DNA from: Alphaproteobacteria bacterium
Lineage (GTDB): Bacteria; Pseudomonadota; Alphaproteobacteria; Micavibrionales; UBA2020
Assembly (NCBI GenBank): GCA_027483355.1
Contig: JAIXUW010000292.1
Coordinates: forward strand, 222,226 to 286,225
Length of the DNA stretch: 64,000 bases
Direction: 5' to 3'
The first letter of the stretch is position 1. Each line of letters opens with the position of its first letter. The notes below the pieces were generated by a model. The model saw only the letters and a program-made list of their open reading frames with translations, was not told the DNA's origin and did no database searches. Position numbers and translations under genes: made by a program. Shown here piece after piece: positions 8,922 through 55,294 of this stretch.

Positions 8922-9044
8922 ATACAAGCCGTCAATTCATCGTGTAAATCTGTGCAATTAAGACCCCCTCATTCTTACCGCAGCCATTGCTTTACTTTCA
9001 CGTGCAAATCCTTGCAATCAGTCAAAAATCACGCGCCAAGTCAC

Positions 9045-9635: not shown

Positions 9636-9903
9636 ATACACCTTGTTTATTTCAAGGATGCGTGGCCCAGGACATTGGCAAACACACTTTTTTGTACATA
9701 AAACGATCCAACCGACCTCCGTATGTAAGAATTGCAATATACCACACTGAGATAATAAGCCTCTCTATGGCGATGTAAATCCAAATACGCGCGCGAAAAA
9801 ACTTTTACTGTTGGCTGAGCCCCCTTTATTTCTTCATTTCGCTCGCTTATCTGCTCGCTTCGAACTAATTTGTATTGGTTTTTACGGTACACCGCCTCAA
9901 AAA

Positions 9904-10851: not shown

Positions 10852-10997
10852 GTGCACAGATTGGTGACAATGTAAATCCCTTTTCCAATGTAAAAAAGTT
10901 CGCGCTTTACTCGCGGGGGTATCAAAACTTCGCGTCTAGTTTTTTTTTGTCGAGTCACCGTCTCATTCACTAATTTTCACCTCTTATCTTGTCCATC

Positions 10998-17400: not shown

Positions 17401-18449
17401 ACCACCATGTACAACAGGCGCGAATTTGCATTGACCGTGAACATGGCACCGTTTGAATATATTAGCGCAGGATTTCCAAGTGCGTATTGAAGCGTGAAAA
17501 ATTCGGCTGGGCACGGCGCAGCAGCTCCAGCGCCTCCTCCTCCGACCCACGTCCAAATGTTTGTTGCTAAAGTATACAAAAACATGAAACACGAATTTGT
17601 CGTACTTGACGTAGTATACATGGCCAAGTGCGTCGTGTTGTAGGGCGTGTAGGTGCATTGTTTTCGATTACAAGGCAATGCGATTGTTCCTGCGTTCGAA
17701 ACGCGTTTTGTTCCAGCATTTGGAGTCGAAACACCGTCATCTCTCATACATGCGAACAATAAAGTAGAACTGTTGAATCTGTACATGTCCGATCTCAGTG
17801 CACCTCCGGAAGTGGAAGAGCGCCCACCGCTCAGATAAACAATATTATCCAGCGCCGCGGAAACATATCTCATATGGAATACAGCGTATTCGGCTCGTCT
17901 GCCGAATCGAGGAACTCCACAGGAAGGTCCCTGTGTAGTTTGAGTTATAAAAATCCACGTAGGCGACAATAAAGACGTGTCGAGTCTCCACAAATCGCCT
18001 TGGACAGATCCTGCTGAATTATATCCACCATATAAGAATAAAAATCTGTTTTGAAACGTCCAAGCGCCCATGGAGTAACGCGAGCCGATGGAGCTAGGAA
18101 TAGATATCGCGACATTTGTAGCATTACTGCCCGTGACCCAATTCCACGAAGAAGTTGTTGTTTGATATCGAAAAGTGTTAGCGTAAACATTTACACCGTT
18201 CCTGCCGCCCATAATATACACGATAGAATTATTGGGATTTGTGTTGTCCGTAAGCGTCCACAGCGCAAACTCAGACCGCGTAAATGGCGTATTTGGAATC
18301 GCATTCGATGCTCCGCCGCTCAAGTACGCCCATTGTGGTTGAAGCAATGATATTGGCTGCGATACACCAAAGCCGAGAAGCACGGCAACTGAAAAAATCA
18401 CAACCGTTACACATTGGTACACATACCACGCTTTTTTGTGTGTATACAT
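14466..18449 (-). CDS. type-I membrane protein: Kelch-like propeller + (PPV/APP)n stalk + 7-blade RCC1-like propeller + TM anchor
   Basis: ORF 14466..18602 overlaps the stop of the upstream gene; the ATG at 18449 gives a signal-anchor (VTVVIFSVAVLLGFGVS).
- Kelch-like units: VYIMGGRNG...W, LFLYGGYNSAGSVQGDLWRLD, VYLSGGRSS...MYRF.
- About 375 aa of PPVAPPVSPPQAPPVAPP repeats.
- Seven RCC1 signatures: WGGNDLGQLG, WGSNLNAQLD, YGNNDFGQLG, WGSNDKGQLG, WGNNDRGQLA, WGSNQYGQLG, WGRNSSGQVG.
- C-terminal TM segment LIPLYVIVAITGFGIVAVAF plus a basic tail. Confidence 0.8.
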   Translation of the reverse strand: MYTHKKAWYVYQCVTVVIFSVAVLLGFGVSQPISLLQPQWAYLSGGASNAIPNTPFTRSEFALWTLTDNTNPNNSIVYIMGGRNGVNVYANTFRYQTTTSSWNWVTGSNATNVAISIPSSIGSRYSMGAWTFQNRFLFLYGGYNSAGSVQGDLWRLDTSLLSPTWIFITQTTQGPSCGVPRFGRRAEYAVFHMRYVSAALDNIVYLSGGRSSTSGGALRSDMYRFNSSTLLFACMRDDGVSTPNAGTKRVSNAGTIALPCNRKQCTYTPYNTTHLAMYTTSSTTNSCFMFLYTLATNIWTWVGGGGAGAAAPCPAEFFTLQYALGNPALIYSNGAMFTVNANSRLLYMVVQSQTTARGHLWAYDYDSDQFFWMAGNASNALGTYPAPNVFSALNFPFGRLSGEVFVQPGGSPFSPSNINTGLIGGQNAFTTPTTYYNDVWRFRTVVLPPAPVAPPVGPPVLAPQAAPVAPPVAPPKAPPVAPPVAPPVAPPVSPPQAPPVAPPQNPPQAPPVAPPVASPVAPPVSPPVAPPLAPPVAPPQNPPQSPPVAPPVSPPQAPPISPPQAPPVAPPVSPPQAPPVAPPVAPPVSPPQSPPVAPPVEPPVAPPVLPPQAQPVAPPVSPPQSPPVAPPVSPPQTPPVAPPVLPPQAPPVAPPVEPPQAPPVAPPVSPPVAPPVAPPVAPPVEPPVAPPVLPPQAPPISPPVAPPVSPPVAPPVLPPQAPPGSPPVEPPVAPPVLPPQAPPVAPPVSPPVAPPQAPPVSPPVEPPVAPPVSPPVAPPQSQPVAPPQNPPVAPPQTPPVAPPQNAPVSPPVPPPIEPPNVNGNYLGSWGGNDLGQLGRVISNSSSIDPLIQLVDVNSVQSLQVLAVGYKHNLMKLSGERYYEWGSNLNAQLDPASNTTVSVPLPRISPQLDYIRQRIEFWFSNTRNVAINFLAGGQEHSVAVVRTVTKNPPNVIEDFVITYGNNDFGQLGVADLAPRTERAAVALPNSRVRVSVLFEIKQACAGANYSAILSTDGAVWTWGSNDKGQLGIGSYNNTETPRLVMLAESIRLISCGSDFMFAVTERSPVVVYSWGNNDRGQLADPTEMSPNRNAPMIAFGIPPDSVNVQLQTQYICAGGAHGLYISQDTSSVYAWGSNQYGQLGQNKTVAELAYSSVPQIVANTTATRGVWCGVEHVLLYKPGQTQAVFEIQTWGRNSSGQVGIAVNGIDYTDTSGSVRFPVTVRELSTEIGNSILLSGLGEFHTIVLQTGPPTPPVTPPAQPTALIPLYVIVAITGFGIVAVAFHSLCCRTPVPAKRSKITPPPSPPTAPRARNYNSKTATTRMRKM
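15990..17125 (-). repeat. coding 9-bp-periodic proline-rich repeat (PPV/APP/PPQ units)
   Basis: The DNA is a long degenerate GGNGGNNNN-type periodic tract. It keeps the antisense frame open too (spurious 376-aa ORF 15995..17125). Confidence 0.85.
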
Positions 18450-18598
18450 GAATAGTATGTGTTTACTAGTATTATGAAAATATTTTACATGGGTAAAAAC
18501 TAGGCGAAAAATAAGTGTGAACTCGCGCGAGGGGTTGTTCCAAAAATGGAAGGTGTACACACACATACACCCCCCGGGGTGGGCGGGCGCGCACGCTT

Positions 18599-25100: not shown

Positions 25101-26040
25101 AGTCGATGCAATTCATCTTTCTGTACTCGTAAGATATTCGCTTCCTTGGCATGTTTTTCTTTTTTGGCTTGAACAACGTCTGGCGATTCATTAGAACCCA
25201 TGAAAGTTCCGCGCGTTCGTAGTAGGCTTCGTTGTCAAACTCTTCACGCGTGTCATTGTGATACTCCAACGTCGTCGTCCTAAAGTCCGATCCGATGAGA
25301 TAAAACACGACTCCGCTTCGGCCTCTGGATTCTTTGACAATTGATTGCGCGATTTCATGTCGTCTGACTAGATCCATCGGAACTGTACGCTCTTGTTCTA
25401 TTCGTTTCTCATCCCATCGAACGTTTACTTGATCATTTCGCAGCCTTTCAGCGTAACGTTTTCTGAGCGGCTTTTCTGTATAAGAACCGGACACGGCCTG
25501 AAAGGTCTTGTCGCCTAGAGGTCGAGTCAAGCCCGGGTTTTGTTCAACATACGGAGTTAACATTGTATGCAGCACCCTTGCCACTTGCTCAGCGGGAGTG
25601 GTGTCTTTCCAACTCGCCTCGGAACCAGATCGCCACAGCGTCTCCTGCCCGATTCTCATCACTCTGTCCTCGTCTTCGAAATTCACGATGATAGCTGGCA
25701 AGTTTTGGTACGAGTCGACGCGTTCTCCGAGAGGAAAAGGGAATATGAACACGTATTTCCCTTTATGCCGCTGAACCTGATTCTTGTGCAGATTTACAAA
25801 TAGAGCGCTTAGCTCGACTTCGTCTTGAGGCATTTTGGCAGGATAGAACAAGTCTAGGTCTACGAGAACGACCGTGGCTGCAGGAGCGTCCGAGCGGATG
25901 ACAAATTCGAACATCCGAGGCTCGTCGGGGTCCAGAATATTGACCAGTTGTTCATTTGCGTATTTAGTGAACAGTTTTAACGTAGGAGGTCTGCGAGCAG
26001 GGTCCACGCAGACATAGTCGACGACAACGTCGGCGTACAT
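22105..26040 (-). CDS. large orphan protein, tandem paralog 2 (1311 aa) with repeat/Ser-rich C-terminal extension
   Basis: ORF 22105..26058 starts on TTG; first ATG at 26040 (MYADVVVDYVCVD...). Paralogous to 18599..22054. The C-terminal ~200 aa are low-complexity and include the duplicated DAMDVDA(V/A)IPNRV. Confidence 0.75.
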   Translation of the reverse strand: MYADVVVDYVCVDPARRPPTLKLFTKYANEQLVNILDPDEPRMFEFVIRSDAPAATVVLVDLDLFYPAKMPQDEVELSALFVNLHKNQVQRHKGKYVFIFPFPLGERVDSYQNLPAIIVNFEDEDRVMRIGQETLWRSGSEASWKDTTPAEQVARVLHTMLTPYVEQNPGLTRPLGDKTFQAVSGSYTEKPLRKRYAERLRNDQVNVRWDEKRIEQERTVPMDLVRRHEIAQSIVKESRGRSGVVFYLIGSDFRTTTLEYHNDTREEFDNEAYYERAELSWVLMNRQTLFKPKKKNMPRKRISYEYRKMNCIDFTRTWAVGEGLLENANIRSEFQRMLAGTRPSCLNSEEYRIQASQGVAPSFEMLFTWLMCSASGIPIHVDLKDPIAQRFAEIRNSRSLAGFVIYLQRRSDITLAQELIESEGVDDKYYTECRSHVRKAIVVTYSKPRDAISLQCYVDELGKPRVPHDWPNMESFLEWIVTEDEAWKDADMCVSGVQLLLDARVGLQQAIYKVFVPVSHLSTMQRKSFETQTEYQDQAFMNVASLHALGKSLFSKRETLSKEEAENGTLADFENYQAYIGKALLERTKKDPTKSLVYDKLPGFRTDPRRSAFYLFETVGRDLGDIERRRYAVLASMFGPSMGVDRGGNGVKFASGGQEDKTPFSNWDPNVAVDSVARYVYERELSLGIKAQYRFDNHFDVKRMKAKYETKKFAWMAFAGKKLALVKLREVRSKFNAKVSVRLACANYGKSLLRSISTSSDEDEPSENYNQDPDLVYPFVNGFEFVLTRNRTTVLENNDPMKPTDVALMTSELQLLQGRWELNAVGLRAEYLVILLTQLSYVSRAFVFMLEDASGISGTDKYFRHFYIDGATYAMFKEIVPSLYSMPKFGFLALFGPRPGQEMSQIANTTFEPGQLKDTFPAVLQWYRDEKIKQSGNDNNKDRVSSIENAIFSLDVVNARFQVWMRLMLNFRKAINACFNVSIGELKEYVRNSEEVLRSNKNSDYRYPKGSNANELIDVLYDIPDDQNNTNAFRYALETLYEDSEVYESVEWVLSHLLTKKDRTAFSLGGITDFEQEFIRMAFLERPDPESGFSSELSDALTQTWFKLRGVQLSIWAAQNQTHTRSSRKWSRKAKFLPQLAPARKERILLLKNVEENATPEAKRPRRNTSDDSNAVLPKPPITNRPSLRALSSSSPRLAETGTNDAMDVDAVIPNRVDTDDAMDVDAAIPNRVPYTRASERSAVQNRVSRQSDTNVSSRPAPRRPNIANISVQQVASQNPLFTSYAQMLQNKNKTSSSSSQIKPLRQTRPL
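22343..22438 (-). repeat. 2 x 48-bp tandem repeat inside CDS
   Basis: acacggtttggaatagcagcgtcaacatccattgcgtcgtcggtatcg is followed by acacggtttggaataacagcgtcgacgtccattgcgtcgttggtgcc. It encodes the duplicated ...DAMDVDA(V/A)IPNRV motif. Confidence 0.8.
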
Positions 26041-26138
26041 TTCTGGGTATTTTTTCAAACCAAAAAGCCCTTAGTTGTCTCTACGCTAGTGCTTTTCCTT
26101 TCTGAGCCGCGAGAATGCACATTTTTATTATTTACAAG

Positions 26139-27776
26139 TCACGACCGCGCGTATTTTGCCCATTTCTCGATAGGCGTTCTTAGATGAGTGTCAAACAGTT
26201 TTTCATCCAATCTAACCTCGCTTTGCGTGTCGTTTTCGTGCGCCAGATCAGCGCAGCATCGCTTTTGCGCTTGAACTGCAATCTTGTGCAAGTCTTCGAT
26301 ATCCGTAGTCATGCTATGATCCTTTGTGTATGGACATGTGGGAATAAACTGATCTACCACGGTCTCATCCAAAGATTGTTTGATCAGAAAAGAACACGAA
26401 GGCATGGTAGACCTTTCCGGTTTTCTATAGTGCTTGAAATGCGCATCGAATTCAACCCATCTCTGATTAGGCAACGCATTGTACTCGGAGACATTCAAAA
26501 CTCCATTTTGCGCCAAATACGCCATGCCGGGCTCTAAGGCGGGCGCGATTCTGTCCGGCAATGCTCGAGCCAAGAAATGAGCCAAAAATTGACGTCTCGG
26601 ATGCTTGAAATCCTTAAAATCCTGCAAATACTGCGTGACGCATTTCGGGTAGACTGGAGGACGAGCGCCCAGCGATGCCAATTTGGCGCGAACGGCCAGC
26701 TGTCTCTCCTTAGCAGCATTCAGATTGTCGGAAGAATATGCCAGCAACTGGGGCGCGTTTGGGGCAAGTGCTCCCAGCCCAAGAAAGGTGCGCCAGCCTG
26801 CGTTCAGAACGTCAAGGCTTACCAAAGTCGCCGTGACTCTCGGACTCGTACCCTTTAACGTGTATACAGGGTCTAAAATAGTATGATGAAATCGGGGCAC
26901 GTTAATGAACGCTCGAGGATGCTGTTGAACGAGCGCCATTCCGCCTGGCATTTTACCGCTCCAAAACAATCGCAGAATCTTCCACGTGTTCAAGGCTACG
27001 AGTCCCGTGTTGAAAGACAGACTGAACGTTCGTTCTGTGTCCGTTTGAAGTTCTGGCTCGCTTACAATTTTTAACCGCGACTCTTGGCTGCTTGAAAGAC
27101 GCATAAAACTGCCTTCCTTGTCCATACTTCCAAAGAATCGGTGGCTGTCATTCGAGTAACTGGATTTCGACTGCGATTTTGCTGTTTCCTCCACCACTTT
27201 GCTAAATTCTTGTTGTTTTTGAGCTCCGAGCATAGATTTCCACGTTTCTATAATAGTAGACGATGTTTTGGACGAAGGCAAGCTGGCTCGGCGCAGCAAA
27301 TGCTCTTGGAGACTTTGAAGCGGCCCGCGTTCCGTTATCTCGTCGTAAACGCAAGAAACGAATAGGGGCAAGAATTCGAACAAGACTCGACTTATAAATC
27401 TCATGATATTATACATTTGAGTTGACGCCTTGAGGGCAAAAGCCAAATCAATGTCCATTTTCGGCGCCAGCGCCCTTCCATGATCCGGCAGAGAGAATTC
27501 TAACAAAGGCAACTCATTTGTGGAATCACGCGTGATCAAATTCCAAAGATCCGTGCCTTCGTAGCGCCGCGGACATGTTTTGACTTCGGCCAGAAGGTAC
27601 GCCGCGAAATCGTAAATGAAAGAGGCGTTGTTAATGTCGTGTAGAGGAACAGCGCATATGATAAACCACGTAACGCGGTCCAGATTCCACGCTCCCTCTT
27701 TCAGAACGCCCGCGAGGCCGGAATAGAAACTTTCAAACTCTGTTACTAAGCAGTTGTAGAAATACACTGCCGACAT
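26139..27776 (-). CDS. hypothetical protein (545 aa)
   Basis: Long ATG-initiated ORF (MSAVYFYNCLVTEFESFY...), co-oriented with the two giant paralogs. No motif recognised. Confidence 0.7.
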   Translation of the reverse strand: MSAVYFYNCLVTEFESFYSGLAGVLKEGAWNLDRVTWFIICAVPLHDINNASFIYDFAAYLLAEVKTCPRRYEGTDLWNLITRDSTNELPLLEFSLPDHGRALAPKMDIDLAFALKASTQMYNIMRFISRVLFEFLPLFVSCVYDEITERGPLQSLQEHLLRRASLPSSKTSSTIIETWKSMLGAQKQQEFSKVVEETAKSQSKSSYSNDSHRFFGSMDKEGSFMRLSSSQESRLKIVSEPELQTDTERTFSLSFNTGLVALNTWKILRLFWSGKMPGGMALVQQHPRAFINVPRFHHTILDPVYTLKGTSPRVTATLVSLDVLNAGWRTFLGLGALAPNAPQLLAYSSDNLNAAKERQLAVRAKLASLGARPPVYPKCVTQYLQDFKDFKHPRRQFLAHFLARALPDRIAPALEPGMAYLAQNGVLNVSEYNALPNQRWVEFDAHFKHYRKPERSTMPSCSFLIKQSLDETVVDQFIPTCPYTKDHSMTTDIEDLHKIAVQAQKRCCADLAHENDTQSEVRLDEKLFDTHLRTPIEKWAKYARS

Positions 27777-30618: not shown

Positions 30619-30654
30619 ACACACACACACACACACACGCACACACACACACAC
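30619..30654. repeat. (AC)n microsatellite
   Basis: acacacacacacacacacgcacacacacacacacac lies between two convergent genes. It generates the spurious ORF 30517..30699. Confidence 0.9.
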
Positions 30655-30676
30655 ATACAAAAACCGGGAAACGCGC

Positions 30677-42030: not shown

Positions 42031-42059
42031 TCTAACAGATCCCAAAAATAGTGTAGGTG

Positions 42060-42296
42060 TTAGAGAACAATGTAGAAAATTTGATATCGAAGAAAGAGCA
42101 CAGGCCTAGATGGGTAAAGGCAAAAAACGATGCCGACAAGAGCCAGTGAATGCAAATAATATGACACTGTGAAGAATGTGATTATTGAACAAGAATAAAT
42201 GCTCCAATGCCAAGTAGCAAATCGCTGTGGAATGAGGCTGCCCGGAACAGCAGGCAAAGTGACGACGGAATGAGAGGGAGAAAGGGGTTTGGTCAT
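42060..42296 (-). CDS. possible small hydrophobic protein (78 aa)
   Basis: ATG ORF whose stop lies 30 nt upstream of the kinase start, which is typical spacing here. It contains IYSCSIITFFTVSYYLHSLALVGIVFCLY. There is no other support. Confidence 0.25.
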   Translation of the reverse strand: MTKPLSPSHSVVTLPAVPGSLIPQRFATWHWSIYSCSIITFFTVSYYLHSLALVGIVFCLYPSRPVLFLRYQIFYIVL

Positions 42297-42910
42297 GCGA
42301 AAATCCGAGATATATCAAAAGCGTGGATTGGAAGAAAAAAGAGGCACATGTGCCACATCAAACCAATATGATATTCGATGAATTGAATAACGTAAAGCAA
42401 CGTAGCATTCCAATGAAAAGAGGTTGGGCGGCTCACCGCGAATTTCCGACAATCTGCATATCTTACATTATTATCACATGAGTAGTATGTATATACATTT
42501 GGATAAAATGGATTCAGTAAACGCCTACGTTCCTTATAAACGCCAAATCAGTATTTTTTTCGCGAACTAGAATTCAACGTTTACGCAGTTGATAACGGCC
42601 ATGTAAAATGGCTTGAATGACTTAATATTGCCAAAAATTTGTGGGCGTCAAATCAAGTGACAAAGAGCAGCACAAACTTTACACTGAATTGACTGTGGCG
42701 GCAACCTTGGCTCAGTTCAAGGTAAAGCAGGTGCGCTCAATGTGCTTGCGACGATCTCAAAACCTTGTATACTAAAGTATAGTCTTTTGTAGCCGTTTAA
42801 AACGCCGCCGTCGTACCCCCGCCCCACCTTTCTTTTCCGCGTTACCTACAATTGCGCCGGCACTGAAAAAGGGCTTTTACCGTTTATATACACATGACTA
42901 CTCTCAGACG

Positions 42911-43099
42911 TCATTTGCCAGTCGGAACTGGACGCATAGAACCGTTCATCCATTGCCGCGTTATTCCGTATAGTTCGGCTTCTTTTTTCGTAATAGTTCC
43001 AACGGCAGCCAGGTCATTCATCCAATCAGATGAAGAAGGGGCCTGTTTTTGGGGCGGTTTCGCGTCATCGCGGGCCGGTTCAGCGGGTTTGCCAGACAT
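42911..43099 (-). CDS. possible small hydrophilic protein (62 aa)
   Basis: ATG ORF (MSGKPAEPARDDAKPPQKQAPSSSDWMNDLAAVGTITKKEAELYGITRQWMNG...). Its composition is more protein-like than the overlapping plus-strand ORF 42894..43103. No other support. Confidence 0.3.
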   Translation of the reverse strand: MSGKPAEPARDDAKPPQKQAPSSSDWMNDLAAVGTITKKEAELYGITRQWMNGSMRPVPTGK

Positions 43100-43275
43100 T
43101 TGAATAAAGATGGTATTTGCACAAGAAATTGGGATATGCTAGACTTTTTGTATCGCTAGAGACGTCCGAAAACAACTCCCCCTTCTTGTAAGCCACTTTC
43201 TTAAAACCGTTTCTTGGATTTTTCTCGCCAAATCATTTTTGGTAATTTGTGTACATTTTACTAATACACAAAAGC

Positions 43276-45356
43276 ATGGGGGCTCAAACCCCATTTTCGG
43301 CCGTCGCTGTTTTTTTTGAATCTCTGCCGGAAGAACTCAAATTGACTGTGCGTTAAAACCCATTGCTTCTAAAACGTGTTCTGGCACTGACTCTTTGTTT
43401 TACGTATCTAGATCTTCTTCCTTTTGCCGTTTCGCAGTTTGAAAGCAGCGAGATTGGTCTGTAAAAAGTACGGTTCTATGCGCAAAAGTGCCAAACAAAG
43501 CCGTTGTTTTTTTTGTGACCTTGCACCTCGTATAGATGGTATCGAATTTCAATCGATCAAAGAATTTGGAAAAACTTGCATGAAAGATTCTTCGGGATAC
43601 CTCATTTCCCGCTGTACTCGACACACGACTTGGCGGAACAGCCCAAAAGCGTACCCAAAGCTGGCGCGAATACGTCGACGTTTCCTTCCAGCCCTCCCAT
43701 CATCTCATCTTCTGTGGAACCAAAACATGTTTTTTCATACGAGCCCGGCACGGACCGCGAGACGATTTTTCGTCGGTTGCATCGTGAATACAAACGCGTG
43801 AACAATCTCCAAGAGCGGTTGCTTTGGGCTATCGAAGGCCATTATTTTGAGCTTACAAAGCGGCTTGTGGAGAAAAAGGGCGCCGTGATCGAACGCGACA
43901 AGCCCAAAATGAGCTACGGTGCTCTGTACGCCGCTGCGAAAATTGGATGCGGACAGATCACAGCTTATTTGATTAATAAGGGCGCTAATATAAATGCATT
44001 GGCGGATGACAAATCGACACCGTTGTACATCGCGGCACAGAACGGGTGTATTGACTCTTTGAAATTGCTCATCAACGCCGGCGCTTCACTGGAGTGTGTT
44101 TTCAAGTACGTTTTCAAATTTTCATGTAAATATGCGATCTAACACGACTTTTGCACCGATAGTGATGGCTACACACCCCTCTACATTGCGTCCCAAACAA
44201 ATCGGGTGGAAGCCGTTCGACTTTTAGTCGACGCCAAAGCAAAAATCAATGCTTGTTGCTCTCAAGGTTCCACGCCTTTGTATATCGCCGCTCAACAGGG
44301 CCATTTGGAAGTCGCAAAGGTTTTAGTGTCCGCCGGCGCTAACATTGAATCCAAATTCAAAACGGGGTTTACTCCAATCTATGTCGCATCAAGAAACAGC
44401 CATTCGGCGATTGTAGAGTATTTGATTGAAAAAGGAGCGTCGGTCAACGCCAGTGACGGTGACGGATCGACGCCTCTTTACGTGGCATCCCAAAAGTGCG
44501 GTTTTGCGATTTTTATTCCAAACTACAATTGCATTATTCTAACAAACGTGTAAGCGCAGTGGCAGCATAGAATGTGTGCGGGTACTGCTTCAACACGGAG
44601 CTGATCACAGAATCGCCTTCATGAATGGATTCGCTCCGCTTTATATTGCTAGCCAAAATGGACACGCGGAAATTGTAGATCTTTTGTGCAAATCAGGCTC
44701 AGAGGTGAACCGCGTTGCGGACAACGACTTGACAGCGTTATACGTGGCCTGTCAAAACGGGCATGTCGGGGCTGTCGCGCGGCTGCTCAGCCACGGAGCC
44801 AATGCAGATGTTGTGTTCGACGCGGGTTATAGGCCACTTTACATTGCTTCCCAGAAGAACCATGTCGAAATCGTGGAATTGCTTGTCTCGCATGGCGCGC
44901 CTATCAACGCAGTCACGGGCAAGAAGGCAACCGCGTTATATGTTGCATGTCAAAAGGGCAATTTTCAAATTGTCAAATATCTTTTGGAACATGGAGCGGA
45001 TCCAGCGTTGCGGTTTCAAGTACGTTTTCGACGCCGCACTCCGGTTCTTTTTTACTTTCCATAATATCCAACACCTTATTTTCCCCTAGAACGGATTTAC
45101 ATGTCTGCATATTGCCGCGCAAGAAGGCAACGAAAGAGTAGTCGAGTATTTGCTAGAAAACACGAAAATCAACCCTTCAACAAAGTCGAATGATCAGAGA
45201 ATGGCAGCAGAAGTGGCAAAAAAGGCGACTATAACAAAAATAATCAGGGAGAAAATTGAGCAAATGTATACAAAGCCGGCACCCCATCCTGTGCAAACGC
45301 AGGCACTACAAAAACCTCGGTGCATGTGCCGAGAGTGTGTAGTCAGACGGTCTTAG
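43276..45356 (+). CDS. F-box + ankyrin-repeat protein, multi-exon (about 594 aa)
   Basis: Proposed exons are 43276..43347, 43412..43650, 43692..44105, 44163..44495, 44560..45019 and 45090..45356, totalling 1785 nt in frame.
- Exons 1+2 give MGAQTPFSAVAVFFESLPEELKLT|IFFLLPFRSLKAARLVCKKY, a canonical F-box.
- Later exons give about 11 ANK repeats (TPLYIAAQNGH..VV..LL..GA).
- Splicing restores the repeat register at every junction.
- The ORF-track pieces 43576, 44206, 44576 and 45150 all start on TTG/GTG, not ATG.
- The exon 2/3 junction is tentative. Confidence 0.75.
43348..43411 (+). other. spliceosomal-type intron (64 nt)
   Basis: GTGCGT...cactgactc (CTGAC about 20 nt from the 3' end)...TCTAG. 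It removes an in-frame TAA and joins the two halves of the F-box in phase 0. Confidence 0.7.
43651..43691 (+). other. candidate very short intron (41 nt, tentative)
   Basis: A frame change from the 43424 frame to the 43576 frame is required between about 43600 and 43700. GTACCC...tttccttccag gives the right phase. The alternative 43614..43660 (47 nt) also fits, so this is not resolved. Confidence 0.3.
44106..44162 (+). other. spliceosomal-type intron (57 nt)
   Basis: GTACGT...tctaacac...gatAG. It joins ...LECVF + N + DGYTPLYIASQ across a split AA|T codon. Confidence 0.8.
44496..44559 (+). other. spliceosomal-type intron (64 nt)
   Basis: GTGCGG...ttctaacaaac...gcgCAG. It joins ...TPLYVASQ + N + GSIECVRVLLQHGAD. 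Confidence 0.8.
45020..45089 (+). other. spliceosomal-type intron (70 nt)
   Basis: GTACGT...atccaacacc...ttttcccctAG (good polypyrimidine tract). It joins ...GADPALRFQ|NGFTCLHIAAQEGN in phase 0. Confidence 0.8.
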
Positions 45357-45372
45357 ACACATTGTAAACAAA

Positions 45373-46353
45373 ATGGATGCTGTTGTTCTTATTACATTGC
45401 TAGAAACAATTGATTTTGCTGCTAAAAAGCACTCCAAGCAACGCAGAAAGAACGCCGATGCCTCGCCCTACATCGGCACGCCCTCTTTGCATTTTTTTCG
45501 CGCGCGTGTATGACACAGCAACGCCTAACACTTTTATGTTCAAACACAGAGCATCCGATTGGCGTTGCCAAATTGCTGGCAGCGGTTGGTGGTGTCACCG
45601 ACATTTCTACGCTCCAAGCCGGCGTATTACACGATACGCTTGAAGACACGGACACTACATTTCAAGAATTGCAGTCCAAGTTTGGCGAGAAAGTGGCCAA
45701 AATTGTGCGGGAAGTACGTACTTTGAGTTTGGCGTTGCCAAGAACGCTAAGAACGGCTCGTTTTCAGGCCCTTGTTTCTTACAAATCCCACACAGGTTAC
45801 CGACGACAAGAGTCTGCCCAAAGACGAACGCAAGAGACTTCAGATCTCACATGCTCCTCATATGTCGACCGAGGCCAAGCTCGTAAAGCTCGCCGACAAG
45901 CTGCACAATCTTCAATCCCTTCAGATCGAGTCTCCTGCTTTATGGTCTAAATCTCGTATTCAAGGATACTTTGCGTGGGCGCACGCTGTCGTCGCTGGTC
46001 TTCGAGGCACAAATCTTTGGCTCGAATCCGCGTTGAAGCAAGTTTTCTCTGGATCGTTCAAGTGCAAAGAGGGCATGTTTCCTACTTTGCCCGAAAACAC
46101 AGAGGCTGCTCTCGAAAATTATCTCAAGGAAATGAAAGAAGTGGATCAGACGGAGAAAGCGCCAAAAATTGTGGGCATCGTCGTTGGTAACATGTGCTTA
46201 AAAACAAAGCCGTGCCAGCATGTTGTTGAAATGGTTTTTGCCGACGGTCGCAGAGAGAAAAAGCGCATGGACGCCGCTGATGTCGCTTTGGCCTTCAAGA
46301 ACGCAAACCTGACGATTCCCGATCATTTTGTAAACGATGTAGCTCACTTTTGA
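45373..46353 (+). CDS. MESH1/HDDC3-like HD-domain hydrolase ((p)ppGpp-hydrolase/small-alarmone-hydrolase fold) with extra C-terminal ~60-aa domain, 3 exons
   Basis: Exon 1 is MDAVVLITLLETIDFAAKKHSKQRRKNADASPYI.... Exon 2 is HPIGVAKLLAAVGGVTDISTLQAGVLHDTLEDTDTTFQELQSKFGEKVAKIVRE. Exon 3 is VTDDKSLPKDERKRLQISHAPHMSTEAKLVKLADKLHNL.... The order matches metazoan MESH1 as I recall it: (DFAA.KH..QRRK....PYI.HP.GVA, LLHDT.EDT, EVTDDK.LPK.ERKR.Q, KLVKLADKL.NL). The C-terminal 46165..46329 is an added domain. Confidence 0.8.
45506..45549 (+). other. first intron of the HD-hydrolase gene (boundaries ambiguous: 45506..45549 GT-AG, or 45476..45549 GC-AG)
   Basis: The acceptor aaacaCAG|AG is preceded by gcctaacac. 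The only in-phase GT donor (GTGTAT at 45506) leaves a 10-aa insertion (GTPSLHFFRA) inside the conserved PYI.HP motif. A GC donor at 45476 would give PYIEHPIGVA, matching the family motif. Confidence 0.5.
45714..45795 (+). other. spliceosomal-type intron (82 nt)
   Basis: GTACGT...cttac...cacaCAG. It joins KIVRE|VTDDKSLPKDERKRLQ in phase 0 and restores the conserved EVTDDK motif. Confidence 0.85.
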
Positions 46354-47350: not shown

Positions 47351-47376
47351 CAATAAACTCTTATGTGCTCGAAAAT

Positions 47377-47448
47377 GCCGGCGTGGTTCAATTGGTAGAA
47401 TACCTGGTTGTGGCTCAGGCGACGATGGTTCGATTCCACCCGCTGGCA
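47377..47448 (+). tRNA. tRNA-His (anticodon GTG)
   Basis: Manual cloverleaf:
- acceptor gccggcg/cgctggc (one G-U)
- D arm gttc-aattggta-gaat
- anticodon arm cctgg-ttGTGgc-tcagg
- 4-nt variable region
- T arm gatgg-ttcgatt-ccacc (one A-C mismatch, B-box GGTTCGATTCC)
- discriminator A
There is no encoded G-1 or CCA, which is the eukaryote style. Confidence 0.7.
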
Positions 47449-47453
47449 TTGCG

Positions 47454-47530
47454 GACGGCTTAGCTCAGGTGGGATAGTGCTTCATCACGCGCGTATGGGG
47501 AGGTCGCTGGTTCGACCCCAGCAGCTGTCG
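47454..47530 (+). tRNA. tRNA-like gene with abnormal 11-nt anticodon loop (isotype undetermined)
   Basis: Manual fold:
- acceptor gacggct/agctgtc (one G-U)
- U8-A9
- D arm gctc-aggtggga-tagt (3 bp)
- anticodon stem cttca/tgggg (5 bp, two G-U)
- loop tcacgcgcgta (11 nt, contains the palindrome ACGCGCGT)
- variable region aggtc
- perfect T arm gctgg-ttcgacc-ccagc
It starts 5 nt after tRNA-His and is followed by a T5 run. Confidence 0.5.
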
Positions 47531-47571: not shown

Positions 47572-48324
47572 TCAATGTACAATCTCTTGTGTACGTGTGT
47601 CACGCACGCGCGCGCATTTTTTAAGAGCCGCGATAAACAGAATAGGATCGTCCGAATGTTGCATTTGAGTTTTCACAAAATCAACGTTTGAAACTACTTT
47701 TACAAAGCACGAATCTGTGAACTTGCCGCTCGCTTTGAAGGTTTTTCTCAGCAGCTCGGTGTGCTCCGGACGCCATGTATCGACCGAAAAGGCGGGTATG
47801 CCCATCGACAGACGACCTTCGATAGTGACAGGCCAAAACCGCCATGTAGATCGCGGATCGCATCTCATCACAATCCATTCGACGGAACTCTCGCATCGAC
47901 ACCGCGGGCGATTCTTTTTTGGGTCAATGTCATTACACGTGTGAAACGGAATCTTGATTTTTCTATCGGCGTTAGGTTGAACAGAAGCGCTAGTTCTACG
48001 AGGAGTAGTTTTACCTCGCTTTGATTCATAACCGCCTCGGCGTATAGCGCACATTGTGCAATATCCTCCGTTTGATTCCAAGTGAATAACAGGGAAGTAA
48101 ACATAGTTTTGACAGAGTTTGCACATTGCCACGGGCTCAGCAGGCATTTCAGTAACTGGGTCCTTTTGTACCATTGCGTGGCACGAATGTCGTGGATTGG
48201 TTTGATCGTAAGGCGGATCTACTCTTGACATTTGGTTTACTTTGCTGTTTTGTGTTTTAAACGACTGACATACCGCATGGACCACAGATGTCAAAAAAAC
48301 ACGATTTGTGTACGGGGAGGTCAT
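47572..48324 (-). CDS. hypothetical Cys-rich (zinc-ribbon-like) protein
   Basis: 250-aa ATG ORF, with an alternative ATG at 48231 (MSRVDPPYDQ). CKLCQNYVYFPVIHLESNGGYCTMC (CxxC...CxxC) and RCRCESSVEWIVMRC. Its first codons overlap the tRNA 3'-half copy at 48314..48346. Confidence 0.55.
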   Translation of the reverse strand: MTSPYTNRVFLTSVVHAVCQSFKTQNSKVNQMSRVDPPYDQTNPRHSCHAMVQKDPVTEMPAEPVAMCKLCQNYVYFPVIHLESNGGYCTMCAIRRGGYESKRGKTTPRRTSASVQPNADRKIKIPFHTCNDIDPKKNRPRCRCESSVEWIVMRCDPRSTWRFWPVTIEGRLSMGIPAFSVDTWRPEHTELLRKTFKASGKFTDSCFVKVVSNVDFVKTQMQHSDDPILFIAALKKCARVRDTRTQEIVH

Positions 48325-48346
48325 TGGTTCGAGTCCGCAAGCTGTC
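48314..48346 (+). other. orphan copy of a tRNA 3' half (variable region + T arm + 3' acceptor strand)
   Basis: ggggaggtcattggttcgagtccgcaagctgtc versus ggggaggtcgctggttcgaccccagcagctgtc (47497..47529): 26 of 33 identical by manual alignment. The B-box GGTTCGAGTCC is kept but T-stem pairing is lost, and no matching 5' half lies upstream. Confidence 0.55.
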
Positions 48347-49163: not shown

Positions 49164-49294
49164 AATAACGCAACGTAACGCAGCGCGACGCAACGCGGCG
49201 CACCAGCGCGCAAAGGACCGCAGCGCAGCGCAACGCAACGCGACGCACCGCAACCCACCGCAGCGCAGCGCGACGCACCGCAGCGCAACGCAGC
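49164..49294. repeat. degenerate pentanucleotide array (CGCAR/CGCGA/CGCAC)n, about 26 units
   Basis: cgcaa cgtaa cgcag cgcga cgcaa cgcgg cgcac ... cgcag cgcaa cgcag, with strict 5-nt phasing visible across thirteen 10-nt blocks. It lies in the divergent spacer between 48983(-) and 49394(+). It creates three spurious overlapping minus-strand ORFs (AALRC-type). Confidence 0.85.
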
Positions 49295-49393
49295 TCTTGA
49301 AATTCCCTTGCCGTTTATATTTAACAAACAATAAATCCATAATAATACGACAAATACATTCTCAATATTAAGTCTAAAACGTTTCTGCAAAAT

Positions 49394-50062
49394 ATGGATT
49401 TAGAAGAGAGCAAACCACGAAAGAAAAGACCGCTGCCGTATATTGCATCGGGTACTTTTGACCTTTTGGACAATATATTCGAACCAAATCCAAATCTCAA
49501 AAATACATCTAAGCGCGCAAAACATAACCCTGCAACGGCTGTGACGCTCAGTGTCCCAACTCGCTCGACCGTGATACATCGATTCGGAAAGGCAAAAGCG
49601 GTCGCATTCGTCAAATCTGATATTTTGGGGTTCTCCGAACAAGACATTCAACTATCTTTGCATTGGGCGGAGTCGGACACGACGGAGCTCGGAAAATGGT
49701 ACACAGGTTTATCTGCTGCCAACTTTGCGCCCAAAAGTTTGGAAATGACTTCCAACACCAACGAAATGGAGATATATTACACTATCCCCAAATCGTATGA
49801 ACCCAGAGTGGCACAGGAAGTCCGGCAAAATCTATTAGTGCCCGGAACCAAGGTAACCGCGTTTTTAAAAGCGAATCAACAAGAATTTTCATTTGTGATA
49901 TCTCGTTTGCAACAATCGACCGCGCAACGGCAGCACAGCGGAGTTATGTTTATACTCGCCGCGGAATCTTCCGGAAACGTGTCCGCCCAGCCCGCCAACT
50001 TCTTTAAAAAGCCGGCACCCAGACGTGAAATACGTAAAAATGCGTTTGGAATCCATTTATAA
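49394..50062 (+). CDS. hypothetical protein with N-terminal NLS-like SKPRKKRP
   Basis: 222-aa ATG ORF (MDLEESKPRKKRPLPY...). No other motif recognised. Confidence 0.6.
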   Translation: MDLEESKPRKKRPLPYIASGTFDLLDNIFEPNPNLKNTSKRAKHNPATAVTLSVPTRSTVIHRFGKAKAVAFVKSDILGFSEQDIQLSLHWAESDTTELGKWYTGLSAANFAPKSLEMTSNTNEMEIYYTIPKSYEPRVAQEVRQNLLVPGTKVTAFLKANQQEFSFVISRLQQSTAQRQHSGVMFILAAESSGNVSAQPANFFKKPAPRREIRKNAFGIHL

Positions 50063-50178: not shown

Positions 50179-50919
50179 CTACAAATTCACCGTTTCAAGT
50201 CCGTTCCGTGTAGTCGAACCGTTGTCGGGAACAAACCACGTTAGCGGAGCTGAAGAATTTCTGCGAGGGCTGCGTGGTGGCGATCGCGGCCGTCTTCCTT
50301 CAATTTCCATTTTATTCCAAGCCATGTTATCGAGATAAATTCGAAAATGCAAGCCGATCTTTTCCGCTGAAACTCCGGACGAGTTTAAAAGTCGCAGCGC
50401 CTGCGACAGACTGTGATTTCTGTACTTGACCAAAAAATATACAATGTTGGACACTGATCGCGACATTCCTTCTCTGCAGTGTATCAAAACAGTGTATTTT
50501 TCCCGCAAAAGCCGGTCGATTGTACTGGCCGACGTTTTGAACTTTTCTTTGTTGAATTCAAAGTCGTCCTCTATGTTGTAATCATGTAGCGCTAATTCTC
50601 TGCCAGTCTCTTTTACTGGGTCGGCCAATGAAATAATATGGGTAATTCCAAGCTCGCTAAATGTTTTAAGAGCTTCTTCAGAAGCAATAGTTGCATTGGA
50701 CAAATACAAACGACCTTGGTTTGGTTCGTCAAGCAAGATCTCAGTAGGCTTTTCAAATCCAGTAAACGGAAGTGGTTCAAACGCAATGTATTGAACTTGC
50801 GGCGTTACTTTGCGCTTTTTTGTAGGCGATTCGTAGCCAGAGTTCGATTCGTAATCGTCCTCCATTGCGATTAGCCTCGCTTCTTTTGTGTGGTTTCCTG
50901 TAAATGCAATCATTCGCAT
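50179..50919 (-). CDS. dual-specificity (Cys-based) protein phosphatase
   Basis: ORF 50179..50922 starts on GTG; ATG at 50919, with an alternative MEDDYES at 50865. Active-site loop VLIHCREGMSRSVSNIVYFLV (HCxxGxxRS). An upstream D in IEDDFEF is a possible general acid. PTKKRKV NLS-like motif. Confidence 0.8.
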   Translation of the reverse strand: MRMIAFTGNHTKEARLIAMEDDYESNSGYESPTKKRKVTPQVQYIAFEPLPFTGFEKPTEILLDEPNQGRLYLSNATIASEEALKTFSELGITHIISLADPVKETGRELALHDYNIEDDFEFNKEKFKTSASTIDRLLREKYTVLIHCREGMSRSVSNIVYFLVKYRNHSLSQALRLLNSSGVSAEKIGLHFRIYLDNMAWNKMEIEGRRPRSPPRSPRRNSSAPLTWFVPDNGSTTRNGLETVNL

Positions 50920-51012
50920 CACATGTGATTATTTATTTGTATACTCCGAAAGCTAAAAAAAAAGAAGGCGAGAGTCAAGTCCGACCCGGGACCGCGTTCT
51001 ATTTTTAGCTCG

Positions 51013-51032
51013 CCACCTACTCAGGTAGGTGG
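51013..51032. repeat. perfect 8-bp stem / 4-nt loop hairpin (ccacctac tcag gtaggtgg)
   Basis: Read directly from the sequence. It abuts the iteron array. The half-site CCACCTACT recurs at 52312..52320. Confidence 0.7.
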
Positions 51033-51080
51033 ACTCGGCCTCGACTCTGGCTCGACTCGGGTTCGACTCTGGGGCGACTC
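51031..51080. promoter_or_regulatory. five iterons containing (C/G)GACTC at exact 11-bp spacing
   Basis: GACTC occurs at 51032, 51043, 51054, 51065 and 51076 (ggactcggcct cgactctggct cgactcgggtt cgactctgggg cgactc). One copy per helical turn, in an ORF-poor region. Confidence 0.55.
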
Positions 51081-51115
51081 GCTCTCGCGCGTATTTTTTG
51101 TTCTATCATGTAAAA

Positions 51116-51418
51116 ATGTGTTTGATAAACCATATACATAGCAAATATATACACGTCCGGGCGCGTAAAATTTGCTGTGGGGAGAAAAGTCGGGAGCGTC
51201 GCAACGACCTCGTTGCGATCGTAAAAACTTTTTGCCCGCAGGCGATTCGCAGTTTTATAGAGACATGTCTTAAATCATGCGCGCAAATTAGGTGCACAGA
51301 TATAATAACAAATACCGCGGGTTGGATGCAAAGGACCGTAAGCACAATGCGTTTTGTGCGGCAGACTTTGAATTACTCAGCTTCTTCACGCCGCGTGATT
51401 TTACCACATGTTTATTAG
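51116..51418 (+). CDS. possible small Cys-rich protein (100 aa), best-preserved member of a locally triplicated decayed family
   Basis: MCLINHIHSKY...RRNDLVAIVKTFCPQA. Related truncated copies start at 51704 (MNLIGGINDRGKCNDP...) and 52058 (MCLGKIDCDWAKTNPNEVVAIGKTFRA*). Confidence 0.25.
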   Translation: MCLINHIHSKYIHVRARKICCGEKSRERRNDLVAIVKTFCPQAIRSFIETCLKSCAQIRCTDIITNTAGWMQRTVSTMRFVRQTLNYSASSRRVILPHVY

Positions 51419-52417
51419 CACAATATATAAGAATACACGTTTGAAATACAAACTCGCTGGTTTTATTCAAATCCGCGCTATACAATCTTGGTGCTAGCAT
51501 GCAAAAGCGTCGTTCGGCGCTATACCATTTTTTTGATCCGCGCAAAAATTCATATACACTTTCACATATCTAGTTAGGAATTTACAAATCAATCAGAGGT
51601 CTTAAATACGGCGAGATGCACGGATAATTCTACACGCGACCAAATGCATCGGCAAATGATATTATACTCAATTCCGTCCATAACTTTCATGTTGAAAATC
51701 AAAATGAATTTGATTGGCGGGATAAACGATAGAGGCAAGTGCAACGACCCAACAAGCGGTCTCACGATGACTGGAAACTTTTTTGCGGTGGGACCCGTCC
51801 GGGTGTACCCTCCCGGGCGAAAAAGTACGAACGTCGTTAGGACGTTGCGGGTTCCTCTATCGTTTTTCTTTCAGGACAAATTCTCAGAACATCTGATTTT
51901 GTATACTGTTGACTAATCTGAATATAATTGCATCCGCCAACGCATTGTATCGGTGCCAGGTCGATTTCATGCGACTTTGGGGTCGAATCTACGCCGGGCG
52001 ATTTAAGAACCGAAACCATTTTTTTAGTCATATTCATATTGTATAGATCAATAAAAAATGTGTTTGGGGAAAATCGATTGCGATTGGGCCAAAACTAACC
52101 CAAACGAGGTCGTTGCGATTGGGAAAACTTTTCGGGCCTAGGCAACGTCACACATTTCCGGGGATAATTTCTTTTACTACATAAAAATACATGTAACAGT
52201 ATACAATTGGTTGGAGCAAAAATGTCGGGGCGGAGAGCGCGAACCGAGCGTTTTTGTCCGCGGTCGCCCAGAAAAAAAAACCCAAAAGGCGCGTTAAGGC
52301 GCCGCTCGCCCCCACCTACTAATGTTGCGCGCCTGCGCCGTTCTTCAAGTATCTTAAGTGCAATTTTCACATTTGTATGCGTCCATATATCTTGTGAACC
52401 TCATTTTCATTTGAAGA

Positions 52418-52792
52418 ATGGAGAATCCAATGTCCGCGAGCGAGAAAACGCAACGTTTGCTGGCTGCGCTAGTGCAACAGAACGCGGTTATCCTAAAAGA
52501 GTTTGGAAAAATCGCAGTGACCATGTCACGCATGTGCAAGAAAGTGGATGCTTATATTGCGACAACAGCGACAAAGGAGATGGAGAGGCGTTTTTCCGAC
52601 GCTGCCACCGACGACTGTGCGGTAACTAAGACTCGTGCCAGTGAGCTTGCGCCGCCGCCCATTTCATCCAACATGACACGACAATTGAGTCGGTTGACGG
52701 AACTTGCTAATTATGAAGAAAATTTGGATATTGCGCGCGCGTATGATGCGCAGCCACTCAGTGATCTTGTCTCAAACCTGGGTACGCTCTGA
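52418..52792 (+). CDS. hypothetical protein (124 aa)
   Basis: ATG ORF (MENPMSASEKTQRLLAALVQQNAVILKEF...), predicted helical. No motif recognised. Confidence 0.5.
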   Translation: MENPMSASEKTQRLLAALVQQNAVILKEFGKIAVTMSRMCKKVDAYIATTATKEMERRFSDAATDDCAVTKTRASELAPPPISSNMTRQLSRLTELANYEENLDIARAYDAQPLSDLVSNLGTL

Positions 52793-55118: not shown

Positions 55119-55294
55119 GTGTGGCGCAAAATTTTTTTTTCAAGAGTGCCGTGTGTAAAATTAAAAATGAAGTTAAAACGAGCACGTTTCGTTGGTCGTG
55201 AAAAAGGGGAGCATCAATTGGATTATACTCTTTCTGTGCGCGCGCGGTTTTTTTTTGTATTAGACCTGCCAAAGTGAGCCAAAAGATATAACGA

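Follow-up and report, generated by a model that had tools for sequence, protein, structure and literature searches.

The homologous regions (hrs) of baculoviruses and of the nimavirus WSSV occur as copies dispersed around the genome; they work as enhancers and are candidate origins of replication. In the oriP element of EBV, the family of repeats consists of 20 units of 30 bp. Typical Rep iterons are 17–22 bp long, and parC of R1, a type II centromere, is made of two sets of five 11-bp repeats. The paper on the mirusvirus episome does not use the term ‘origin of replication’, and for large intron-bearing DNA viruses or episomes that replicate in the nucleus we found no known origin in the literature that we searched.

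Here we consider an interval of 1,510 bp without a called gene (50920–52429), called the island below, in a window of 64 kb (the whole stretch of DNA that was analysed, 64,000 nt). It extends from a phosphatase gene on the minus strand to an ORFan gene on the plus strand, the two genes being divergent. Like an iteron origin, the island has at least three phased direct repeats, namely five GACTC sites at a step of 11 bp, with a conserved part shorter than the 17–22 bp of iterons; like an hr, it has palindrome-cored units in either orientation (A, L, R and B, with R inverted). Our tentative preference is for a non-coding divergent promoter region, with a minisatellite upstream of a promoter and with decaying local duplications, both direct and inverted.

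The island and its genomic setting

A 1.5-kb gene-free gap had been described in the first-pass annotation of this DNA. Indeed, no gene was called at 50920–52429; the right flanking gene, though, starts at 52430 and not at 52418 as had been proposed. The island, with divergent genes on its two sides, is the longest uncalled gap in the window. Since the other divergent gaps are only 115–405 bp long, ∼1.1 kb of the island is in excess of what a promoter needs. A second gap of similar size, 42031–43477, is seen if only ORFs of at least 100 aa are considered; as read from the sequence, it apparently has at least one plausible small ORF.

The features of the island and the flanking genes are as follows (coordinates in the window).

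50179–50919, minus strand: dual-specificity phosphatase P0010, 246 aa (Pfam DSPc, E=7e-14)
50937–50945, minus strand: TATA-like AGTATACAA, 17 nt ahead of the start codon of the phosphatase, read from the sequence
50955–50963, minus strand: T9 as read on the sense strand of the phosphatase gene (plus strand: A9), promoter-proximal poly(dA:dT)
51008–51021, plus strand: GCTCGCCACCTACT, the left one of the two proposed flanking repeats
51013–51032, unstranded: perfect hairpin, 8-bp stem and 4-nt loop (DNA fold of 51000–51100, z=−2.6)
51031–51081, plus strand: five (C/G)GACTC cores, consensus TCGACTC(T/G)GG, 11-bp period and 22-bp higher-order period (repeat family D1, TRF)
51092–51152, unstranded: AT-rich segment full of TATA, with a duplex of low stability, adjoining the array (fourth least stable 60-mer in the window)
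51100–51262, plus strand: repeat unit A (A–B z=8.1, A–R z=4.1 versus shuffles)
51630–51815, plus strand: repeat unit L, left arm of the imperfect palindrome (L–R z=14.2, L–B z=5.9)
51637–51952, unstranded: imperfect palindrome of ∼316 bp, ∼117-nt arms and 82-nt GC-rich centre (tblastx and blastn self-matches)
51775–51960, minus strand: repeat unit R, right arm, inverted (inverted pair I1, shuffle z-scores)
52025–52165, plus strand: repeat unit B, contains AACGAGGTCGTTGCGA (repeat families D2 and D5; pair I5)
52195–52206, plus strand: AACAGTATACAA, with a perfect reverse complement at 51899–51910 (pair I21)
52272–52280, plus strand: the other A9 run, 150 nt before the gene at 52430
52304–52320, plus strand: GCTCGCCCCCACCTACT, the right one of the two proposed flanking repeats (repeat family D11)
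52430–52792, plus strand: ORFan P0009, 120 aa, right flanking gene (exact product in the protein collection)

The exact product of the phosphatase gene, from the ATG at 50919, is also present in the protein collection. The protein-database search returned the query alone for the phosphatase (no homologue at E≤1e-5), for P0009, which has no Pfam family either, and for protein P0001; IMG/VR, too, yielded no relative of the phosphatase or of P0001.

In composition the island resembles other intergenic DNA of the window (GC 0.439 versus 0.428); its CpG observed/expected ratio is raised (1.53 versus ∼1.25), which counts against a promoter or spacer. The genome seen through the window, uncharacterised so far, is of eukaryote type, with introns, TATA-like boxes and AATAAA signals, and resembles that of a large DNA virus of eukaryotes. 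The one relative found, L198 (JGI 3300045032; ∼79% nucleotide identity), overlaps the window at 25.4–26.4 kb, outside the island. Its coding DNA is ∼85% identical and its intergenic DNA nearly unalignable; therefore, spacers of this lineage evolve fast.

Hairpin, 11-bp array and A/T tracts

The hairpin at 51013–51032, noticed in the first-pass annotation, is perfect (CCACCTAC-tcag-GTAGGTGG). Two of the eight perfect hairpins of the 64 kb with a stem of at least 8 bp and a loop of at most 10 nt are in the island. The five GACTC sites that follow (51032, 51043, 51054, 51065 and 51076) are spaced by exactly 11 bp, as had been claimed, and the arrangement is unique in the window: the pattern GACTC-N6-GACTC occurs four times here and not once elsewhere, with 0.09 occurrences expected. 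The array is situated 113–162 nt upstream of the phosphatase ATG.

The GACTC core is identical throughout the array, the spacers of the five units being variable (a rough estimate of the chance of this is ∼1 in 10); 5–7 nt are conserved per unit, with degeneration beyond the 5-nt core. TRF described the array as 4.5 copies of period 11 with 79% matches and, alternatively, as a repeat of period 22 with 85% matches. The better score of the 22-bp period points to duplication of dimers and suggests an origin of the array by slippage or duplication.

Similar arrays were sought in other collections. A pattern of four GACTC retrieved from IMG/VR 73 tandem repeats of 11 bp, all of them unrelated; among the listed matches to three TCGACTC in metagenomes the arrays were unrelated as well, and none resembled the window outside the array. 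An array of TFIIIC B-boxes was considered and rejected, one unit alone (51060–51070) being within one mismatch of GGTTCGANNCC.

Both A9 runs are present. On the strand of the gene, a T9 run recurs 36–50 nt upstream of the ATG at four genes (10998, 40276, 50919 and 55295), thus A9/T9 runs are generic promoter-proximal features here; the hexamers most enriched in upstream regions are A6/T6 runs. Matches to the TATA-like AGTATACAA with at most one mismatch are more frequent in the window than expected (23 versus 9.2), and three exact matches are in the island. As a general promoter motif, AGTATACAA did not stand up, since its positions in the window do not support such a role; a motif of CGCGC plus an A/T run was found to be not specific.

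The direct repeats proposed to flank the island exist as a pair of sequences, both copies being where the first-pass annotation had put them. Their similarity is weak: 14 of 1000 shuffles matched or exceeded it, and the best local flank-to-flank alignment was driven by the A-run. CCACCTAC was found three times in the island and nowhere in the rest of the window.

Diverged repeat units in the interior

The interior ∼1.05 kb of the island, which had escaped earlier description, is made of four degenerate copies of a ∼130–185-nt unit, in the order A, L, R and B, with R on the minus strand and the others on the plus strand. The units are 55–76% identical to each other. A profile built from L, R and B found unit A as its best match outside the training set (E=0.004). 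No further copies were found in the 64-kb window by blastn and nhmmer, and the L/R core pattern had no match in IMG/VR. The phage collection gave no match either.

An AT-rich TATA-like patch, a block GAATTTG...AAACGAT and an A(n)CT(n) motif recur in each unit, together with a small palindrome, GCAACGNCC, which is near GCAACG in each of A, L, R and B. The palindrome that had been noted at 51200–51217 is inside unit A and turned out to be longer, with 9-bp arms (TCGCAACGA-CC-TCGTTGCGA, 51199–51218). The motifs GCAACGACC and AAACTTTT are retained in three to four diverged copies; one could think of selection for candidate binding sites.

Exact k-mer pairs, direct as well as inverted, are clearly more numerous in the island than in shuffles. 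No sharp outer limit was seen for the similarity between L and R, and the centre of the L/R dyad (51754–51835) is GC-rich. The fold of 51690–51900 gave z from −4.2 to −4.4 on either strand; single units have neither a shared fold nor unusual stability.

How the island may have been built

According to the reading that we prefer, the island would be non-coding divergent intergenic DNA grown by local duplication, and would not be a dedicated origin. Its left ∼250 bp would be upstream DNA of the phosphatase promoter, with the TATA-like AGTATACAA, T9, the hairpin and the five-unit 11-bp minisatellite; the array and the hairpin are as far from the start codon as one would expect if they were an upstream element of this promoter. 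At most, the array might present a GACTC-recognising factor with five sites aligned along the same face of the helix and act as an upstream regulatory element. The four copies of the ∼130–185-nt unit would have appeared by direct and inverted duplication and would now be decaying, with slippage or template switching as the presumed source of the repeats. The right ∼200 bp could then be the upstream region of the gene at 52430. The anatomy of the island, the kinship of its repeats, the missing coding and RNA-family signals and the generic character of the A/T tracts are seen directly in the data; from them we infer a regulatory role for the island.

A related arrangement is seen at gene 49394, where a (NNCGC)∼25 array (49167–49292) is ∼100–230 nt upstream of the gene and is followed by an AT-rich TATA region. 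On the opposite side, the excess of k-mer pairs, the two hairpins out of eight, the short motifs kept in diverged units, the invariant GACTC core and the oversized gap speak against a simple promoter and spacer. Should the island be a promoter and spacer only, the result would be of value for annotation alone: no gene is to be forced into it. The island illustrates a genome tolerant of microsatellites, introns and long spacers, like a nuclear eukaryote-like replicon.

Coding and RNA signal

Another explanation, to which we give a low probability, is that the island holds unannotated transcription units, either for small proteins (a 90-aa ORF at 51644–51916 and a 66-aa ORF at 51837–52037 on the minus strand) or for a hairpin RNA transcribed through the L/R palindrome, with the AACAGTATACAA element at 51910 on the minus strand as a candidate start. 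The codon scores of the two ORFs, 0.077 and 0.087, are in the range of real small genes and are reached by 8–10% of null ORFs; with ∼10 ORFs scored, one or two would be expected in this tail by chance, and the scores of island ORFs in general were null-like or borderline. The two best ORFs overlap in antisense and are not in-frame paralogues; the L frame is interrupted by stops in its R copy, and indels between units disrupt the reading frames.

None of the 19 island ORFs tried was in the protein collection. The 90-aa ORF had no homologue among 1.84 billion representatives, which is weak evidence in an ORFan genome. Canonical splice donors (GTACGT-type) are absent from the island, where two weak spliced ORFs were found; in sum of these features, the coding composition, homologue, called product and splice sites of a protein-coding gene were not seen in it.

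For an RNA, one could point to the way the units open with TATA-like AT-rich sequence and close with an A(n)CT(4–6) run, to the perfect 12-nt element placed divergently at 51899–51910 and 52195–52206, to AATAAA on both strands within the island and to the stable fold of the palindrome (z about −4.3). This stability, however, is equal on the two strands, as expected of any inverted duplication, and neither a called gene nor an Rfam match nor a shared or stable fold of single units goes with it. The sole match of Rfam 15 to the island was GEBRO, with 15.7 bits versus a gathering threshold of 284.7 (E=0.51), and no tRNA was found there. A family of small-RNA genes was rejected because there was no consensus structure and z was ∼0 for single units. 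Logan contigs were discarded as transcript evidence; they are low-coverage DNA pieces with ends mostly within genes.

Possible replication origin or inserted element

It is about equally improbable, in our estimate, that the island is a replication origin or an episome-maintenance element with an initiator or partition protein, viral or of the host, bound to the five phased GACTC sites. The AT-rich 60–70 bp beside the array would then unwind, and the hairpins, together with the ∼316-bp dyad, would extrude or recruit further factors, by analogy with EBV oriP (array and dyad) or with a herpesvirus or baculovirus non-hr origin between divergent genes. A more specific version seems less probable still: in a DNA virus or episome of ∼292 kb that has introns and replicates in the nucleus, the GACTC sites, the unwinding segment and the dyad might cooperate as one oriP-like cis-element. 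The first-pass annotation had proposed an origin or a site for multimeric binding proteins, and it is architecture alone (hairpin, phased repeats, AT-rich stretch, divergent position) that leads to this reading.

The order of elements is suggestive, with the hairpin passing into five 11-bp-phased repeats and these into an AT-rich segment of low stability; so are the density of direct and inverted repeats, the small palindromic motifs recurring in every unit and the location in the longest uncalled gap, with divergent genes on its two sides. Yet each repeat has just 11 bp and is degenerate except for a 5-nt core, the array looks like an 11/22-bp minisatellite, a comparable short-repeat array precedes another gene (49167–49292), and A-tracts are generic to promoters here. 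Of the 12 least stable 60-mers of the window, four fall in the island; the global minimum is elsewhere, at 49314, and AT-richness is common to all intergenic DNA here. The GC skew makes no turn at the locus, and gene orientation does not switch specifically at this site.

One site resembling HSV UL9 box I, with a single mismatch, is found at 51823–51833; ∼0.02 such sites were expected by chance, and it was one of six motifs tried. ACS, DnaA box and AP-1/Gcn4 sites are absent from the island. An AT-rich-centred palindrome with inverted sites, as in herpesvirus oriS/oriL, was not found: the centre of the dyad is GC-rich and the UL9-like site is single. No cognate initiator gene, nor any other replication or partition gene, is adjacent, the neighbours being the dual-specificity phosphatase and ORFans. 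If the island were a true origin or maintenance site, it would be a clonable candidate for the start or upkeep of replication in a large nuclear or episomal protist virus.

The least probable explanation, a relic of a ∼1.3-kb non-autonomous insert with the direct repeats GCTCGCC(CCC)ACCTACT (GCTCGCC...CCACCTACT) as att-like or terminal repeats, can draw on a 14/17-nt motif that is found at either end, similarly oriented and each time after an A9 run, and on the confinement of CCACCTAC to the island, and is very unlikely given that the flank similarity is marginal, that A9 runs are generic in this genome, that the composition is that of other intergenic DNA, that terminal inverted repeats at the ends, a recognisable target-site duplication and a transposase or integrase are missing, and that there is no second copy in the window, IMG/VR or phage records, so that the sharp TIRs, target-site duplication and multiple copies of a MITE or TIR transposon were not seen in the island.

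Comparison with known systems

Similarly to hrs and non-hr origins, the island is non-coding and AT-rich to some degree, and has degenerate units of ∼100–250 bp with imperfect palindromes in both orientations; hrs are defined by several dispersed copies, and one cluster was seen in the 64-kb window, with unit sequences unrelated to theirs. With HSV oriS/oriL, HCMV and EBV oriLyt and EBV oriP (family of repeats plus dyad symmetry) it shares a position between divergent genes, many short repeats, and short sites arrayed in tandem several hundred base pairs away from a dyad-symmetry element. It differs from the herpesvirus origins by the GC-rich dyad centre, by having one UL9-like site and by the five units of 11 bp.

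The five direct 11-bp repeats beside a promoter are reminiscent of R1 parC. In contrast with plasmid origins and with R1 parC, the genome is of eukaryote type, there is no adjacent Rep, ParR or ParM, and the set of repeats is single.

Finally, the island is like the mini- and microsatellites and poly(dA:dT) tracts of eukaryotic promoters in that an array 100–230 bp before the start, A/T tracts and TATA-like sequence occur together, and do so at two genes. It departs from a typical product of slippage in its perfectly conserved core, its exact helical period and the fusion of the array to a perfect hairpin.

Repeats of the island

All elements described in the first-pass annotation are present where it had placed them. 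No gene was called between the phosphatase gene (50179-50919, - strand) and an ORFan gene (52430-52792, + strand). The window has seven divergent gene pairs; this uncalled gap, the island, has 1,510 bp, and the remaining divergent gaps have 115-405 bp, except one of 1,447 bp (42.0-43.5 kb) that, judging from the sequence, appears to hold at least one plausible small ORF.

Near the phosphatase lies a perfect hairpin, CCACCTAC-tcag-GTAGGTGG (51013-51032); the GACTC cores adjoining it start at 51032, 51043, 51054, 51065 and 51076, i.e. in exact 11-bp steps. TRF reported this array with period 11 (4.5 copies, 79% matches) and with period 22 (85% matches). The spaced pair GACTC-N6-GACTC was seen four times in the array and nowhere else in the window (0.09 expected). 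The core is identical in all units and the spacers are variable; position 6 of the unit alternates between G and T with a 22-bp super-period, the pattern expected from duplication of dimers. By a rough estimate, five contiguous columns would be conserved by chance in about 1 case in 10. In scans of IMG/VR and metagenomes for arrays of the GACTC type, the matches listed were unrelated tandem repeats with an 11-bp unit.

Reading of the array as B-boxes fails, as only one unit is within one mismatch of the consensus. A perfect B-box consensus (GGTTCGAGTCC) is located at 48326-48336, just 5′ of the - strand gene 47572-48324, at a site without a predicted tRNA.

The palindrome at 51200-51217 was confirmed as well, its arms reaching 9 bp on extension. 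Two of the eight perfect hairpins of the 64 kb (stem ≥8, loop ≤10) fall in the island, and exact direct and inverted k-mer pairs are several-fold more frequent in it than in dinucleotide shuffles.

The sequence of the island interior points to four diverged copies of one unit; we are confident of two pairs, and a single family is likely.

Repeat units of the island
51100-51262, + strand, unit A
51630-51815, + strand, unit L
51775-51960, - strand, unit R
52025-52165, + strand, unit B

Smith-Waterman comparison with dinucleotide shuffles gave z of 14.2 for L-R, 8.1 for A-B, 5.9 for L-B and 4.1 for A-R; similarity of A-L and R-B was not significant. When L, R and B were combined in a profile, its best non-training match in the window was A (E=0.004); no further copies were found in the window, IMG/VR or phage records. 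Every unit has four parts, namely a TATA-like patch rich in AT, a block of the form GAATTTG...AAACGAT, a small palindromic sequence around GCAACGNCC, and an A(n)CT(4-6) run with GC-rich sequence after it. Three copies of GCAACGACC are in the island and none elsewhere in the window; three of the eight window matches to a AAAACTTTT-like motif fall in the island. Together L and R make an imperfect palindrome of ∼316 bp (arms of ∼117 nt, GC-rich centre of 82 nt); folding gave z near -4.3 for both strands.

The features of the island are real and non-random. Their most economical account, which we offer tentatively, would be a non-coding divergent promoter region in which a minisatellite upstream of the promoter is fused with a hairpin and accompanied by a cluster of local duplications, both direct and inverted, that is decaying.

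Search for origin signals

The first-pass annotation had likened the iterons, hairpin and A-tracts to replication origins or sites for multimeric DNA-binding proteins. The AT-rich DNA adjoining the array (51092-51152) is among the least stable of the window, and 4 of the 12 least stable 60-mers are in the island; the global minimum is at 49314. No GC-skew turn occurs at the island, no replication gene adjoins it, and a search for known motifs (ACS, DnaA box, AP-1/Gcn4) found none. At 51823-51833 (- strand) CGTTCGTACTT is one mismatch away from HSV-1 UL9 origin-binding box I (CGTTCGCACTT); this site, which occurs once and close to the middle of the L/R dyad (chance expectation ∼0.02), is regarded as a chance match. 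Furthermore, gene 49394 has a GC-rich array of degenerate pentanucleotides, (NNCGC) x ∼25 (49167-49292), 100-230 nt upstream; directly after this array comes an AT-rich TATA region, with 49314-49400 less stable than any other DNA in the window. Since this second array precedes a gene, the order of array, AT-rich DNA and gene recurs as a promoter layout and does not mark the island out as unique. In our judgement the island is unlikely to be an origin or maintenance element.

Coding capacity and transcripts

Small transcripts missed in the annotation, or an RNA hairpin, are likewise an unlikely explanation of the island. About ten island ORFs were scored by codon-usage log-odds trained on long ORFs. 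The 90-aa ORF 51644-51916 and the 66-aa ORF 51837-52037 (- strand) scored like real small genes, yet these scores fall in the 8-10% tail of null ORFs, with about ten tried; the two overlap on opposite strands and show no in-frame paralogy. The score of the 100-aa ORF in unit A (51116-51418) was like the null distribution, and reading frames are broken by indels between units. No homologue of the 90-aa ORF was found among 1.84 billion representatives; 19 island ORFs with ATG or alternative starts were absent from a collection of 15 billion proteins, in which both flanking products are present.

Donor hexamers of this genome's introns do not occur in the island, and relaxed donors gave just two weak spliced ORFs. 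Rfam (E≤1) returned only noise, ARAGORN found no tRNA, and the four units have no consensus structure, single units being no more stable than shuffles. Logan contigs matching the window are identical DNA fragments and carry no transcript information.

Flanks of the island

The flanking direct repeats, earlier taken as possible marks of an inserted segment, proved weak: of 1000 shuffles, 14 did as well as the best local alignment between the flanks, an alignment that depends on the A-run. Runs of ≥8 A or T are nearly restricted to intergenic DNA. T9 on the sense strand is found 36-50 nt upstream of the ATG in four genes, the phosphatase among them (T9/A9 runs at 10940, 40312, 50955 and 55248), and may be a promoter or 5′-end element of this genome; the most enriched hexamers upstream of genes are A6 and T6. 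The left A9 of the island is therefore an ordinary promoter-proximal tract. Three copies of CCACCTAC occur in the island and none elsewhere in the window; this motif being island-specific, the two ends could still be related. We consider an insertion relic very improbable.

Ends of two Logan contigs (L075 and L001; 52283 and 55133) are ≤3 nt from 9-base homopolymers (A9 52272-52280, T9 55132-55140), likely an assembly break; other Logan contig ends are inside genes.

Genome setting and comparison

The window has GC of ∼47% and coding density of ∼84%. Its products are singletons from one NCBI contig of 292,368 bp; almost every one is without a Pfam family, the exceptions being eukaryote-style domains (dual-specificity phosphatase, RCC1/Kelch, subtilase, Sina RING finger, DUF285, kinase fragment). 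The phosphatase, the 120-aa ORFan product and another window protein (P0001) had no homologue among 5.8 billion proteins. Spliceosomal introns (GTACGT...CTAAC...YAG, ∼60-90 nt) are present in an ankyrin-repeat gene and an HD-domain gene (43800-46353), unusual in an otherwise ORFan-rich, giant-virus-like genome; TATA-like boxes and AAAATG start contexts are frequent.

A related virus is represented by contig L198 (JGI metagenome 3300045032; also an ENA assembly), which was recovered for window 25390-26444 and has ∼79% nucleotide identity (88% at the amino-acid level over 88 residues). Identity reaches ∼85% in coding DNA, and the intergenic spacer is essentially unalignable, apart from AATAAA directly after the stop codon and an A-rich start context; therefore, if this relative had kept the island, that would be informative.

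Eukaryotic nuclear signals (introns, TATA-like boxes, AAAATG starts, AATAAA) are in use by this genome. We therefore take the window to belong to a large DNA virus or episome, as yet uncharacterised, with expression in a eukaryote nucleus.

Several other features were observed. An (AC)20 microsatellite, a eukaryote-like feature, lies between two convergent genes (30619-30659). At 47376-47530 tRNA-His (GTG) is followed after 4 nt by a tRNA-like gene of 77 nt (Rfam tRNA score 31 bits), to which ARAGORN assigned a 4-base anticodon (cgcg); either an odd anticodon loop or a small intron could account for this. The 1,366-aa ORF 14466-18566 (- strand) has both Kelch and RCC1 propeller domains and, at 16000-17100, repeats of 12/24/36/108 nt over ∼1.1 kb, which give a proline-rich tract on the coding strand. 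A direct repeat of 170 nt (8763-8926 and 9477-9640, 69% identity), shared by the 3′ portions of two adjacent + strand genes, probably represents paralogous C-termini.

Thraustochytrid mirusvirus episomes (circular, 275-298 kb) are of similar size and also have introns, a resemblance only. The island, read tentatively as a repeat-bearing divergent promoter region, is alike in kind to repeat-rich non-coding regions of other large DNA viruses.
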